Positions 39,162 to 44,303 are shown, counted from the stretch's first letter. The stretch: DNA of 64,000 nt from Clostridia bacterium (GCA_045578865.1 JAZNLB010000008.1:37234-101233); one strand, 5' to 3'. A program made the numbers and translations. Notes: a model not told the origin generated them from the sequence alone.

Positions 39162-39237
39162 GCTGCCTTAGCTCAGTAGGTAGAGCACTTCCTTGGTAAG
39201 GAAGAGGTCGGCAGTTCAAATCTGCTAGGCAGCTCCA
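39162..39237 (+). tRNA. tRNA-Thr (anticodon GGU), CCA encoded
   Basis: Acceptor GCTGCCT/AGGCAGC, D-arm AGCTCAGTAGGTAGAGC, anticodon stem CTTCC/GGAAG with loop TTGGTAA, T-arm GGCAGTTCAAATCTGCT, then TCCA. Confidence 0.93.
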
Positions 39238-39245
39238 ACACAAAA

Positions 39246-39276
39246 AAAGCACTTGCAAACGCAAGTGCTTTTTTTG
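39246..39276. terminator. Bidirectional hairpin terminator after tRNA-Thr
   Basis: AAAAAAAGCACTTGC-AAAC-GCAAGTGCTTTTTTT. Confidence 0.8.
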
Positions 39277-39285
39277 CGTTGCTTC

Positions 39286-39405
39286 CCTATGTACCACTTT
39301 TTCTTTCCCTTATTTTAATGTTTTTAACGCTTCGCTGAAGCGCTGGAAATGTACAACTTCTCGCGCACGCAAGAACTTAATTACATCGTTGACATCTGCA
39401 TCAAA
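39286..39405 (-). pseudogene. Truncated, frameshifted remnant of the last ~40 codons of a cotJC (Mn-catalase family) gene
   Basis: The minus strand reads DADVNDVIKFLRAREVVHFQRFSEAL. Intact cotJC at 43725-43850 reads DADVNDVIKFLRAREVVHFQRFGEAL. Across 26 aligned codons there are 14 nt differences, 12 of them synonymous third-position changes. A 2-nt indel then breaks the frame before the NKGKKKWYIG-coding tail. Confidence 0.85.
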
Positions 39406-39431
39406 AGAAGCAAATCAACAAAATTTAATTT

Positions 39432-39466
39432 AAAAATCCACGATAAATATTTATCGTGGATTTTTA
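39432..39466. terminator. Perfect palindromic hairpin, bidirectional terminator downstream of the GH105 operon
   Basis: AAAAATCCACGATAAATATTTATCGTGGATTTTT. Confidence 0.75.
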
Positions 39467-39488
39467 TTACACGGAGCTTATAATATTC

Positions 39489-40556
39489 TTACTTATATTC
39501 GAAAAGCTCAATCTCTTCGATACCGTTTTTATATGCTTCAACAAGAGCAAACATAATACATCCGTAAGAATGAACTTCGTCCGTTTGAGGATATTTTTCG
39601 GTAATATAAGCTTTGGCCGTACCTTTTTCCTTTCCTTGTCCGGGGCACAGGCATCCCGGGCAGGACAGAACTGTCATATATTCTGTTGTAATACAGTATT
39701 TACCCAGGCCCTCAATGCCCTTTTTAAAGGCTTCCATATATTTTTCGTCCTTTAAAATTCCGCATCGTATACCTACGCCGATACCATAAAGAATAAGCCC
39801 TGTTCCGGTACATTCATACCATGCTAATTCTTCATTAAGAACCTGTCTCCACAGACCTCTTTCGGTCTGATGCTCCAACATAGAATCTGTATGATCTTTG
39901 TAAAGCTTTAATGCTTGTTCTCTGTGCGGAGAATCTTCAGGCAGATATTGAACAAGTTCGGTAATACCTAAATAACCCCAGCCATTTCCTCTTCCCCAAT
40001 AATCAGAAGAAACTCTTTCCGGATCTTCAAGGCAACCTCTTGACTGATGCAAAAGTCCGTTGCTCTTATCACGGAATAAATCGTATGCCTTAAAGCAAAG
40101 CTGCGCCGCATAATCAATATACCTCTGTTCTCCCAAAGCGAGTCCAGTGTAAAGCATATACGGAGCAATGAAAGCAATAATATCAATCCACACTCTTTCA
40201 TGATACTTATCATGCGAGATTATACCCTCTTTGCTGTGTGGTGAATTTATCGTAATTTCTGCATATTCACGAAGAAGCTCTGCTGTTTCAGGCATGTAAT
40301 CCTTCATGCACATCCACGCTTTTACCGGGCCGCCTACTTTATATGCTTGGAAGTGATAAAAGGGATGGTCAAAGTTGTCAGGATAAAGTTCAAGATACGC
40401 TTTGCATTTATTGATGAGCTCCTCATTTTTACCGACATCAGCTGCCATAGCGAGTCCATGATATGCTAAAAGTCCATAATAGGCGCGTATACTCTCATGT
40501 TTTTCCTCATAGCGATTAAAAAGTTTAACCGCAGTATCAAGTATATTTACTTTCAT
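39489..40556 (-). CDS. Unsaturated rhamnogalacturonyl/glucuronyl hydrolase (GH105/GH88)
   Basis: Family hallmarks VWIDIIAFIAPYM, DYWGRGNGWGYLG, YECTGTGLILYGIGVGIRCGIL and HSYGCIMFALVE. It has no signal peptide. Confidence 0.8.
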   Translation of the reverse strand: MKVNILDTAVKLFNRYEEKHESIRAYYGLLAYHGLAMAADVGKNEELINKCKAYLELYPDNFDHPFYHFQAYKVGGPVKAWMCMKDYMPETAELLREYAEITINSPHSKEGIISHDKYHERVWIDIIAFIAPYMLYTGLALGEQRYIDYAAQLCFKAYDLFRDKSNGLLHQSRGCLEDPERVSSDYWGRGNGWGYLGITELVQYLPEDSPHREQALKLYKDHTDSMLEHQTERGLWRQVLNEELAWYECTGTGLILYGIGVGIRCGILKDEKYMEAFKKGIEGLGKYCITTEYMTVLSCPGCLCPGQGKEKGTAKAYITEKYPQTDEVHSYGCIMFALVEAYKNGIEEIELFEYK

Positions 40557-41961: not shown

Positions 41962-41987
41962 TTTATTTTCCTCCTGAATTTATAATA

Positions 41988-42701
41988 TTAGAAATAACCG
42001 CCGTTATCAACAACTTCTGTAGGTGTCATACCGCTGTTGACCATATCCTTGATTTCAACTTCGTTGTCACGAATTTCTTCTGCACGAAGAAGTACCTCGT
42101 ATGCAATTTCTCTAGGAATTACAATACATCCGTCAATATCTCCGAGAACAACATCACCAGGAAATACCATTACCTTGCCCATTGTGATTGGCATTTGATA
42201 ACCGATTGTACGGAATCTGCCAAGCATACCATTCGAGCTTCTGAATTTACAGAAAACAGGAAAGTTCTGCTCAAGAACACGATTCGTATCACGAACACCG
42301 CCATCAACCATTGCGCCGCGGCACCCCTGCTTCTTAGCAGCCATTGTCATAATTTCGCCCCACTGTGCGGACTCGTCATCCTCGGAAGTATCCCATACGA
42401 TAACGCTGTCCTGCGGGATTGCTTCAAGCATTTTTGCACGCTCAATCATTTCGTTTTCAAGACTAAGATTCTTTGAACCCTTGATTGTGAAAACGATTCC
42501 GGCAACCTTCATTTCTTCACGCAGGGGAAGAATATTGTTGGGAAGCGTCTGATAAAGATACTGCATTTCTCTAAGAACATCATTAACCATAGGTGTTGTT
42601 ACACCCTCGTAACGGTCACAAAGCTCCTTTACGCTGATAGGAAACGGAGTATCTTTAATCTTTCCTCTCTCTTTTGTTAATTCTTCAAGATTCATATACA
42701 T
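41988..42701 (-). CDS. RraA-family protein (4-hydroxy-4-methyl-2-oxoglutarate aldolase / oxaloacetate decarboxylase-like)
   Basis: The core GEIMTMAAKKQGCRGAMVDGGVRD and PGDVVLGDIDGCIVIP are typical of the RraA/HMG-aldolase fold. An alternative start is at 42695. Confidence 0.7.
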   Translation of the reverse strand: MYMNLEELTKERGKIKDTPFPISVKELCDRYEGVTTPMVNDVLREMQYLYQTLPNNILPLREEMKVAGIVFTIKGSKNLSLENEMIERAKMLEAIPQDSVIVWDTSEDDESAQWGEIMTMAAKKQGCRGAMVDGGVRDTNRVLEQNFPVFCKFRSSNGMLGRFRTIGYQMPITMGKVMVFPGDVVLGDIDGCIVIPREIAYEVLLRAEEIRDNEVEIKDMVNSGMTPTEVVDNGGYF

Positions 42702-42850
42702 TCCATCCTTTCACAAAAACATTTGCAACAATATAATAACACAATATCATTCACAATTCAAATACATAAATAGCTTTTTGTTTGTATAAATCGCTCATAA
42801 TTGATTGACAATAAAATTCTAATATGCTATACTTTTTATGGGTGAAGTTC

Positions 42851-43633
42851 ATGAATAATATTGATTTTTTAATAACGAAAATAAACCGAGTAATCCACCG
42901 TAAACCAAACCCTAACTGGAGCGACGACAGACTTTTTTACGAAAGCGAATATAACATAGTTATTGTGTTGGACGGAAAAGCGAAATACATAATTAATTCC
43001 GAAGAAATCAATGTTAAAAAGAATGATATTGTAATTTTCCCTCCCGGAATTGTAAGAGCCGGTTGTTCCGATAAAATAAGTCCATGGGAATTTATTACAA
43101 TCAATTTTGATTTGGATCTGAATTGTGACGAAAAAGGTTTTTTTGACAAAGGCTACTTGCTATTTGAAAGCGCAGGGACAAGTACAAGAAGCAGATTTCT
43201 CGATATCGCTTATCTATGGGAGGGCAAAAGTCCCCTTTATGCAGTTAAATGCAGGAATTTAATATCGGATATTTTATACGAGCTAATCAGGAAATCTCTC
43301 CCATATAATAAAACGCCCCACGCAGATAAGCTTGAGGCTGCGCGCACATATATACAGGCAAATTTCAGAGAGAAAATAAGCATCGAAGACCTTGCCGAAA
43401 GAATGGGCCTGAGTCAGTCATATTTTCGCAAATTGTTTACAAAGGCATACAATCAATCTCCCCAGCAATATATCATAAACCTAAGAATAAACACAGCATA
43501 CGACCTTTTGATGTCAGGCGAAGTAAATGTAAGCGAAGCTGCTTCCCTAAGCGGTTTCGATGACATTTACTATTTCAGCACACTCTTTAAAAAACAAAGA
43601 GGGTTTTCCCCTTCTAAAGTCATTCATTCGTAG
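42851..43633 (+). CDS. AraC-family transcriptional regulator (cupin sensor plus 2x HTH)
   Basis: The C-terminal region is IEDLAERMGLSQSYFRKLFTKAY...AASLSGFDDIYYFSTLFKKQRGFSP. It is divergent from the GH105 operon. Confidence 0.88.
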   Translation: MNNIDFLITKINRVIHRKPNPNWSDDRLFYESEYNIVIVLDGKAKYIINSEEINVKKNDIVIFPPGIVRAGCSDKISPWEFITINFDLDLNCDEKGFFDKGYLLFESAGTSTRSRFLDIAYLWEGKSPLYAVKCRNLISDILYELIRKSLPYNKTPHADKLEAARTYIQANFREKISIEDLAERMGLSQSYFRKLFTKAYNQSPQQYIINLRINTAYDLLMSGEVNVSEAASLSGFDDIYYFSTLFKKQRGFSPSKVIHS

Positions 43634-43662
43634 TACAAGACCTTCGGGCTAAGAACTGCGTT

Positions 43663-43703
43663 AAAAATGACCGGCCACCGCACGGGATGCCGGTCATTTT
43701 TTT
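43663..43703. terminator. Bidirectional hairpin terminator between araC-like gene and cotJC
   Basis: AAAAATGACCGGC...GCCGGTCATTTTTTT. Confidence 0.75.
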
Positions 43704-43724
43704 GTGTCCATACAGACTTTTGTG

Positions 43725-44303
43725 TTATTTACCTATATACCACTTTTTCTTTCCCTTATTTTGTATATTATTTAATGCTTCACCGAAGCGTTGAAAATGC
43801 ACGACTTCGCGTGCGCGCAAAAACTTAATTACATCATTAACATCCGCATCATCGGAAAATCTCAAAATGTTATCGTATGTCGCTCTCGCTTTTTGTTCTG
43901 CCGCCAAATCCTCCGTTAAATCTGTAATCGGATCCGACGAAACAGCAAAGCTGATTGCGTTAAACGGGTATCCGGCAGAATCTACCGGATATACACCGCG
44001 TCCGTGATCAATGAAGTATTGCGCGAGTGGACTGTTTTCAATTTGCCCTGTTGTAGCATTTTTTGCAAGTTGACGCACCAATGTACCAACAATTTCCAGA
44101 TGCGCCAGTTCTTCTGTGCCGATGTCATTGAGCAGCGATTTGCTGATTTCGTCCGGCATGGAAAACCTTTGGGACAAATAGCGCATAGACGCACCGAGTT
44201 CACCATTTGGACCACCGTACTGACTTACAATAAAATTTGCTAATTTCGGGTTCGGCGTTTTAATTTTGACGGGATATTCTAAAAACTTTTGATATTGCCA
44301 CAT
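43725..44303 (-). CDS. cotJC: Spore coat protein CotJC (manganese catalase family)
   Basis: The sequence contains YGGPNGELGASMRYLSQRF and EELAHLEIV. It is preceded by cotJB and cotJA. Confidence 0.9.
   Translation of the reverse strand: MWQYQKFLEYPVKIKTPNPKLANFIVSQYGGPNGELGASMRYLSQRFSMPDEISKSLLNDIGTEELAHLEIVGTLVRQLAKNATTGQIENSPLAQYFIDHGRGVYPVDSAGYPFNAISFAVSSDPITDLTEDLAAEQKARATYDNILRFSDDADVNDVIKFLRAREVVHFQRFGEALNNIQNKGKKKWYIGK

Follow-up and report, generated by a model that had tools for sequence, protein, structure and literature searches.

In the DNA of a Clostridia bacterium we found the 3' end of the sporulation gene cotJC twice, once as the end of the intact gene and once as an orphan fragment beside a tRNA-Thr gene, with a 4.3-kb cassette of five genes lying between the two copies. 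The sequence studied is a window of 64,000 nt (GCA_045578865.1 JAZNLB010000008.1:37234-101233), and all coordinates given below are window positions unless a comparison locus is named; the 81 comparison loci carry the labels L001-L081. We consider it moderately probable that the cassette was imported from a related lineage, anchored by homology in the cotJ operon and closed at its other end by an illegitimate or single-crossover junction. The two copies of the cotJC end have diverged in the manner of coding sequences, the orphan sits in the ancestral context of the gene end, and the cassette is a portable unit of atypical composition that contains no mobility genes. No dedicated recombinase would be needed for such an event, and the arrangement would be a one-off footprint of 3'-end displacement with no active mobile element.

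The repeat finder reports the duplication as two blocks in direct orientation, 39323-39403 versus 43771-43851 (81 nt, 83% identity) and 39272-39316 versus 43718-43762 (45 nt, 89% identity), whose different spacings (4448 and 4446 nt) place a 2-nt indel at about 39322/39323. When the copies are aligned codon by codon, 39279-39402 corresponds to the final 42 codons of cotJC (43725-43850), and a tblastn search with CotJC recovers the orphan at 81% over residues 150-181 (E 2e-12). Identity between the copies amounts to 101 of 124 positions (81.5%), the longest identical run common to both being about 20 nt. The 23 substitutions are distributed 4/1/18 over codon positions 1, 2 and 3; at least 18 third-position differences out of 23 have a probability of 1.3e-5 under a uniform model. 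At the codon level 15 differences are synonymous and four are non-synonymous, the latter comprising one Gly to Ser exchange, two codons at the indel and the stop codon, which reads CAA instead of TAA in the orphan (39279-39281). Apart from the lost stop codon the orphan thus carries one further lesion, the 2-nt deletion. The concentration of differences in third positions indicates that most of the divergence arose while both copies encoded protein, until recently. Its extent matches that seen between species: the cotJC end of the window agrees with those of other members of the clade at 102/126 (L002), 99/126 (L004) and 101/126 (L006) positions, so that, judged from these alignments, copy-to-copy divergence equals between-species divergence. 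This supports separate evolutionary origins of the two copies (xenology) rather than duplication in situ, although old paralogues would fit the pattern too. A first-pass annotation of the window had already described the terminus as duplicated in direct orientation, with 14 nt differing ahead of a 2-nt indel and with divergence acquired as functional genes; repeat finder and codon alignment agree on all of this (we count 14 differences in the 80 nt upstream of the indel), and only the limits of the orphan, placed there at 39286-39405, have to be moved to 39279-39402. The same holds for the gene content it had assigned to the cassette and the cotJ operon, with which our Pfam matches and the PDB matches to GH105 enzymes agree. 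The features of the locus are:

39162-39237, plus strand: tRNA-Thr, anticodon GGT (ARAGORN)
39236-39281, both strands: bidirectional hairpin terminator common to tRNA-Thr and, ancestrally, cotJC (inverted repeat I4; 21-nt arms, 95% complementary, the right arm taking in the final codon of the orphan; folds of -28 and -32 kcal/mol with z -9.3 and -7.1 on the two strands)
39279-39402, minus strand: orphan cotJC 3' fragment equivalent to codons 151-192, a pseudogene stub (repeat finder, codon alignment, tblastn)
39403-39488, minus strand: junction spacer with the predicted terminator hairpin of the cassette itself at 39431-39466 (terminator scan and fold; perfect palindrome with a 16-bp stem, -19.3 kcal/mol, z -6.6)
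39489-40556, minus strand: GH105/GH88-family unsaturated uronyl hydrolase, last gene of the operon (Pfam PF07470, E 3e-40; in PDB it best matches unsaturated rhamnoglycuronyl hydrolase and YteR)
40556-41266, minus strand: 236-aa protein without family assignment, at the same position in all related clusters
41269-41961, minus strand: short-chain dehydrogenase/reductase (SDR; PF00106, E 3e-42)
41988-42701, minus strand: RraA-like/class II aldolase family protein, first gene of the operon (PF03737, E 5e-30; aldolase-type subfamilies in NCBIfam)
42824-43633, plus strand: AraC-family regulator, divergent from the operon (PF00165, PF12833, PF02311)
43663-43701, both strands: bidirectional hairpin terminator between AraC and the present cotJC end (folds of -25.6 and -25.0 kcal/mol, z -3.4 and -3.6)
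43725-43850, minus strand: 3' end of the intact cotJC (codons 151-192 and stop), the copy that would have arrived with the cassette
43725-44303, minus strand: cotJC, intact, 192 codons (Pfam Mn_catalase)
44319-44582, minus strand: cotJB (Pfam CotJB)
44582-44818, minus strand: cotJA (Pfam CotJA; the whole cotJA-cotJB-cotJC operon spans 43725-44818)
45129-47501, minus strand: spoIIE (Pfam)

To place the orphan we compared the site with that of relatives, which came from a scan of one genome per species and are metagenome-assembled genomes (MAGs) of uncultured gut Clostridia. By its flanking proteins the nearest of them is L002 (SpoIIE 78.6%, pda product 79.7%, PBP5 79.3%, DpaB 80.3% and CotJC 98% identity), followed, by identity of the pda product, by L054 (73%), L003 (69.5%) and L004 (64%). 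SpoIIE on the one side and Pda, PBP5 and DpaB on the other are equally distant from L002, and both flanks therefore look resident. The tRNA-Thr serves as a constant landmark on the right-hand side of the site (L002, L003, L004, L052 and L054 have it too), and together with the hairpin at 39236-39281, pda, the dacB-like PBP5 gene and dpaB/dpaA it is kept in L002, L054, L003 and L004. What lies between the cotJC stop codon and this hairpin differs from species to species: a 1.6-kb open reading frame (ORF) with an LPD3 polyvalent-protein domain in L002; an ORF of 996 aa with a PBECR3 domain, a PPi-phosphofructokinase gene and a 1009-aa glycosidase in L003; phosphofructokinase and glycosidase genes in L054; the GH105 cassette and the orphan in the window; and nothing at all in L004, where cotJC directly meets the hairpin. 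The cotJC/tRNA-Thr junction is thus a variable site: of the five species, four hold different sets of cargo there and one has the site empty.

The empty site is informative for the orphan, since window positions 39403-38338 and L004 449-1515 form one collinear alignment that runs through the cotJC end, the hairpin, tRNA-Thr and pda, and the last codon of the orphan lies 3-4 nt from the hairpin, just as the stop codon does in L004. This collinearity with an intact gene end shows that the orphan lies where cotJC ended ancestrally. Both the proposal that the orphan is the native end and the expectation that some relative would have cotJC adjoining hairpin and tRNA-Thr directly, which the first-pass annotation had put forward, are borne out by L004. 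An ancient arrangement shared by all relatives, which would have spoken against an insertion, was not found: both cotJC copies together are not found in any relative (in L002, L003, L004 and L054 the syntenic locus holds one cotJC and lacks an orphan), a sensitive search of the cargo of L002, L003 and L054 detected no orphan cotJC pieces, and nothing in the window corresponds to the polyvalent-protein ORFs of L002 and L003.

The same comparison bears on the idea that the orphan was left behind by a second cotJ operon, through the loss of most of a tandem copy or through ectopic recombination between two cotJ operons of one genome, which would have brought the cassette to its present place. Old paralogues would account for the divergence pattern as well as orthologues do, and extra cotJ copies may exist in the clade, as pieces of cotJC lie on two contigs of a single related MAG (L004 and L037). 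However, tblastn searches with CotJA, CotJB and CotJC against the 64-kb window find the known operon and the orphan only, so that there is no trace of a second cotJAB, the four syntenic relatives have one cotJC each, and the orphan is placed exactly like the sole cotJC end of L004. We therefore regard this origin as decidedly unlikely.

The cassette itself is not confined to this locus. Positions 39492-43620 are collinear, at 75-80% nucleotide identity, with clusters in five loci that we reached via AraC homologues (L047-L051) and that contain the same five genes in the same order (52-96% amino acid identity per gene), whereas the rest of the 64-kb window has no match to them. These clusters sit in unrelated neighbourhoods, among ordinary metabolic genes. 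Homology in blastn ends at 39492-39502, close to the end of the GH105 gene; the related clusters carry an extra Fe-ADH gene (PF13685) 6-8 nt past GH105 (L047 6638-6645, L048 1346-1354, L049 6649-6656), which the window cassette is without. In its place the window has an 83-nt spacer, for which no match was found in any fetched locus. When 60 sliding windows of 4.3 kb are ranked by tetranucleotide usage, the cassette deviates most (r 0.887 versus a mean of 0.943, sd 0.020), and the codon usage of the AraC and RraA-like genes falls below the minimum of 46 background genes. The suggestion that this segment is incoming DNA is supported by both the collinear clusters in unrelated contexts and the atypical tetranucleotides; of the compositional contrast sought, the part concerning tetranucleotides and codon usage holds, while plain GC content fails to set the cassette apart. 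A same-species contig that is 99.5% identical (L001) has the same cotJC-cassette arrangement.

Taken by itself, the structure is symmetrical, and either side could hold the homologous anchor. One could thus reverse the polarity and take the cassette as resident and the tRNA-Thr side with its truncated cotJC end as imported, anchored in pda/dacB. The order tRNA-Thr-pda-dacB-dpaBA is, however, kept in every relative, this flank is as distant from L002 as SpoIIE is, and it is the cassette and not the tRNA flank that is compositionally atypical and absent from the site in all relatives. Hence we consider the reversed course of events very unlikely.

No machinery for mobility was detected. The five ORFs of the cassette are assigned by Pfam and NCBIfam to GH88/105, a protein without family, SDR, RraA-like and AraC, none of them a recombinase, and the intergenic spaces of only 83, 122 and 91 nt leave no room for a decayed integrase. 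The repeat finder shows no flanking or terminal inverted repeats around the cassette, and the 3' end of tRNA-Thr (searched as 32-nt and 19-nt probes with up to 3 mismatches) occurs once in the window, with no att-like second copy. A plasmid search gave no match and a scan of viral contigs likewise none; the sole match in a phage collection covers 81 nt of cotJC and lies on a bacterial-looking contig with cas genes. The absence of integrase, transposase and inverted repeats noted on first inspection is thereby confirmed from ORF assignments and from the repeat and tRNA-end searches. One inverted repeat (I7, 39321-39341 versus 43777-43797) had come up as a candidate terminal inverted repeat and was rejected, as it is an internal palindrome of the repeated cotJC segment.

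These results also weigh on the possibility that a site-specific island of the tyrosine-integrase type integrated at the 3' end of cotJC with an attP that brought a replacement end, and later lost its integrase and other genes. Its architecture would look like the one we observe, with a restored gene end on one side, a displaced partial end on the other and both in direct orientation. Moreover, cotJC is a favoured target in relatives: it is split by serine-recombinase elements in L036 and L056, it is also interrupted at codon ~63 in L054 and L081 (no recombinase was identified there), and fragments of polyvalent proteins, i.e. debris of mobile elements, lie downstream of it in L002 and L003. 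On the other hand, the cassette has neither a recombinase nor a pseudogene of one, with intergenic spaces as short as those given above; over all of its 4.1 kb it aligns collinearly with an ordinary metabolic cluster from non-mobile contexts; viral contigs and plasmids gave no match; and the known cotJC elements split the gene at codons 30 or 63 with serine recombinases and do not restore its end. Direct repeats from the target gene are indeed present at both ends (124 versus 126 nt), yet at 81.5% identity they are far more diverged than typical att sites. An island of this kind fits the geometry but nothing else, and we judge it unlikely. Between the two kinds of mechanism named at the outset, recombination with foreign DNA carrying a cotJC flank is accordingly favoured, and a dedicated integrating element appears less likely.

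For the import by recombination we propose the following course. Originally, cotJA-cotJB-cotJC ended directly at the hairpin it had in common with the convergent tRNA-Thr, as is still the case in L004. The incoming DNA would have stemmed from a related Clostridia lineage in which an AraC-regulated cluster of GH105, the 236-aa protein, SDR and RraA-like genes lay just downstream of cotJC. One of its ends would have recombined homologously within the conserved cotJ operon, and the other, about 85 nt past the GH105 stop codon, would have been joined illegitimately inside the recipient cotJC, at its codon 151. By another route, one crossover with a circular molecule bearing only the 3' end of cotJC would give the same product. 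This product would be a functional cotJC with a foreign end of at least the last 42 codons and a new terminator, followed by the 4.3-kb cassette and the displaced native end of 42 codons, which would since have lost 2 nt and its stop codon. The order of elements in the window is that of a displacement footprint: the intact cotJC, then the cassette, then an orphan of codons 151-192. The hairpin at 43663-43701, which is unlike that at 39236-39281, takes over from the native one as the predicted terminator of cotJC.

Several points weigh against this interpretation. The empty site is known from a fairly distant relative (L004, with 64% amino acid identity in the pda product), and as the closer L002, L003 and L054 hold other cargo, the ancestral state of the window lineage is deduced rather than observed. 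In a search for pda homologues, we found no conspecific strain without the cassette, the nearest homologue outside the species being 79% identical. Sliding-window identity against five relatives revealed no homologous crossover point in cotJB-cotJC, where synonymous sites have almost reached saturation. Sequences that differ by about 18% also recombine inefficiently. The searches brought up no donor: of the 81 loci, the same-species L001 is the only one in which CotJC and a cassette gene occur together, none of six contexts of AraC homologues (82-71% identity, the closest being 82%, 77% and 73%) lies beside cotJC, and neither these contexts nor the genome, metagenome and viral scans contain the donor arrangement, in a clade that is sparsely sampled. 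The metagenome scan with CotJC returned nothing above 81%, and its best matches cover only the first 64-69 residues; look-ups of the exact pda and GH105 products of the window gave no match either, as the called start codons probably differ. Finally, neither of the independent Logan contigs of the species covers the junction at 39403: L001 reaches no further than 39437, and L073 begins within the tRNA.

The last point raises the question of a chimera, in which the metagenome assembly would have joined two related strains or species at the orphan. The source genome is probably a MAG like those of all relatives, and L001 and L073 stop on either side of the orphan. Similar breaks are seen in other short-read assemblies, with L052, L053 and L055 also starting at or within tRNA-Thr. 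Since assemblies of the species and of its relatives break at tRNA-Thr or at the palindrome, the orphan region is covered by the assembly of the window only. Still, the palindrome at 39431-39466 and the multicopy nature of the tRNA explain the breaks in the Logan contigs, the identical stretches common to the copies are too short for a k-mer mis-join (see above), and an abrupt truncation with frame-destroying lesions is not expected from two intact genes. A mis-assembly is in our view highly improbable.

As to its function, the cassette probably turns unsaturated uronates towards 2-keto-3-deoxygluconate (KDG), judging from family membership: the GH105 enzyme would release unsaturated uronate, which SDR, the 236-aa protein and the RraA-like enzyme would process. 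Genes for a PfkB-type kinase (kdgK) and a KDPG/KHG aldolase are located at 32566-34317, about 5 kb from the cassette, and are kept in L052 and L054. A KDG pathway already resident in the cell may be fed by the imported uronate cluster. For the 236-aa protein, searches of Pfam, NCBIfam and PDB gave no match, while its homologues in L047-L051 share 52-62% amino acid identity. Its coding sequence contains a 42-nt hairpin with a 19-pair stem (41104-41145), owing to which similar peptides are encoded on both strands (tblastn self-match 41046-41147, E 0.001). Promoter-like sites by the AraC gene are found at 42710-42737 and 42805-42833.

Beyond the window, other Clostridia, some related and some more distant, have cotJC genes that intervening DNA interrupts at one of two positions. 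A split at codon ~30 occurs in L056 (932-10489), and one at codon ~63, within the TEELAH metal-site motif, in L036 (6296-10402), L054 (1-4726), L081 (3870-4256) and at several contig ends; cotJC truncations at codon ~63-69 at contig ends are seen in L037-L041 and L069-L072. The inserts of L036 and L056 encode a large serine recombinase of 519 and 480 aa, respectively (Resolvase, Recombinase and Zn_ribbon domains), and by their sequence look like a skin-type intervening element of a sporulation gene. Searches of the literature collection available, aimed at a cotJC intervening element or a cargo hot spot downstream of cotJC, found no description of either. In one MAG (JAZSQB01), two contigs, L004 (1-151) and L037 (10001-10190), both hold codons 12-52 of cotJC at 89% nucleotide identity, with nearly all differences in third positions; L037 has cotJAB and codons 1-63 of cotJC followed by foreign sequence, and L004 has 29 nt of unrelated sequence followed by codons 12-192 and tRNA-Thr. 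The pair may represent a second diverged partial duplication of cotJC, comparable to that of the window but on the 5' side, or else two cotJ operons or a binning mixture. Large polyvalent proteins with LPD3 or PBECR3 domains are typical of phages and conjugative elements. Fragments of such proteins make up the cargo just downstream of cotJC in L002 (10601-12220, LPD3) and L003 (1577-4567, PBECR3). Two more regions belong with them, L037 5113-6825 and L054 1-3416; L054 encodes a MuF_C protein of 2465 aa upstream of the 3' half of its cotJC. From their domains, these polyvalent and MuF_C proteins look like debris of mobile elements.

One might go further and view cotJC together with the interval from its stop codon to the hairpin as a clade-wide capture site, at which different cargo is repeatedly installed by a common and so far undescribed mechanism. 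The intervening elements of cotJC might then supply serine recombinases that mobilise cassettes in trans or, alternatively, seed the recombination by which cassettes are installed, and the diverged repeat of the window would be one visible scar of the process. We hold this to be improbable. For the window we stay with the import of the cassette by recombination anchored in cotJ, a new example of an event of known type that leaves the understanding of CotJ, sporulation and gene transfer unchanged. It would be a natural example of a metabolic operon fixed in a chromosome without the machinery of a mobile element, with the displaced gene end as a datable scar, and it would show that 3'-end displacement is not limited to toxin loci such as those of Rhs, contact-dependent inhibition (CDI) and type VI secretion systems (T6SS). 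An annotation should label the orphan a pseudogene fragment and list the cassette as a small genomic islet. The comparison also flags the cotJC/tRNA-Thr junction as a variable site in a poorly sampled clade of gut Clostridia, and what is more intriguing is found outside the window: in relatives, serine-recombinase elements repeatedly split cotJC, and the junction downstream of it is a hot spot for cargo.

Among known systems, several invite comparison. Islands that integrases insert at the 3' ends of tRNA or protein genes likewise have a restored end, a displaced partial copy, an adjoining tRNA and an empty site, but the window has no integrase, its repeat derives from cotJC and not from the tRNA, and the repeats are 18% diverged over 124 nt instead of short and near-identical. 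Intervening elements of sporulation genes (skin in sigK, SPbeta in spsM, vfbin, vrin and gin; PMC4191935, PMC5595907) resemble the present case in that cotJC is a sporulation gene and that the relatives L036 and L056 have serine-recombinase elements inside it; in the window, however, cotJC is an uninterrupted ORF of 192 codons, 98% identical to that of L002, and there is no recombinase, so that excision is neither needed nor possible. Effector loci of the Rhs, CDI and T6SS type undergo C-terminal displacement (Jackson et al. 2009; Kirchberger et al. 2017, PMC5361080), in which a new 3' end with its cargo is likewise placed behind a conserved 5' region and the old end is pushed downstream in direct orientation. 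There, the new end encodes a different toxin domain and comes with an immunity gene, and this is the selected feature, whereas both cotJC ends encode nearly the same peptide, with one Gly/Ser difference before the lesions. The duplication of cotJC would thus be a by-product, and the selected cargo the sugar operon. For T6SS and Rhs loci the displacement has been modelled as homology-facilitated illegitimate recombination (PMC5361080), a process for which that paper cites de Vries & Wackernagel 2002, Prudhomme et al. 2002 and Meier & Wackernagel 2003. With this process the proposed event shares one homologous anchor, one illegitimate junction and the lack of a recombinase, as well as an insert that is continuous with the anchor gene on one side and joined abruptly on the other; the cotJC case, however, is read from a natural footprint and not from an experiment.

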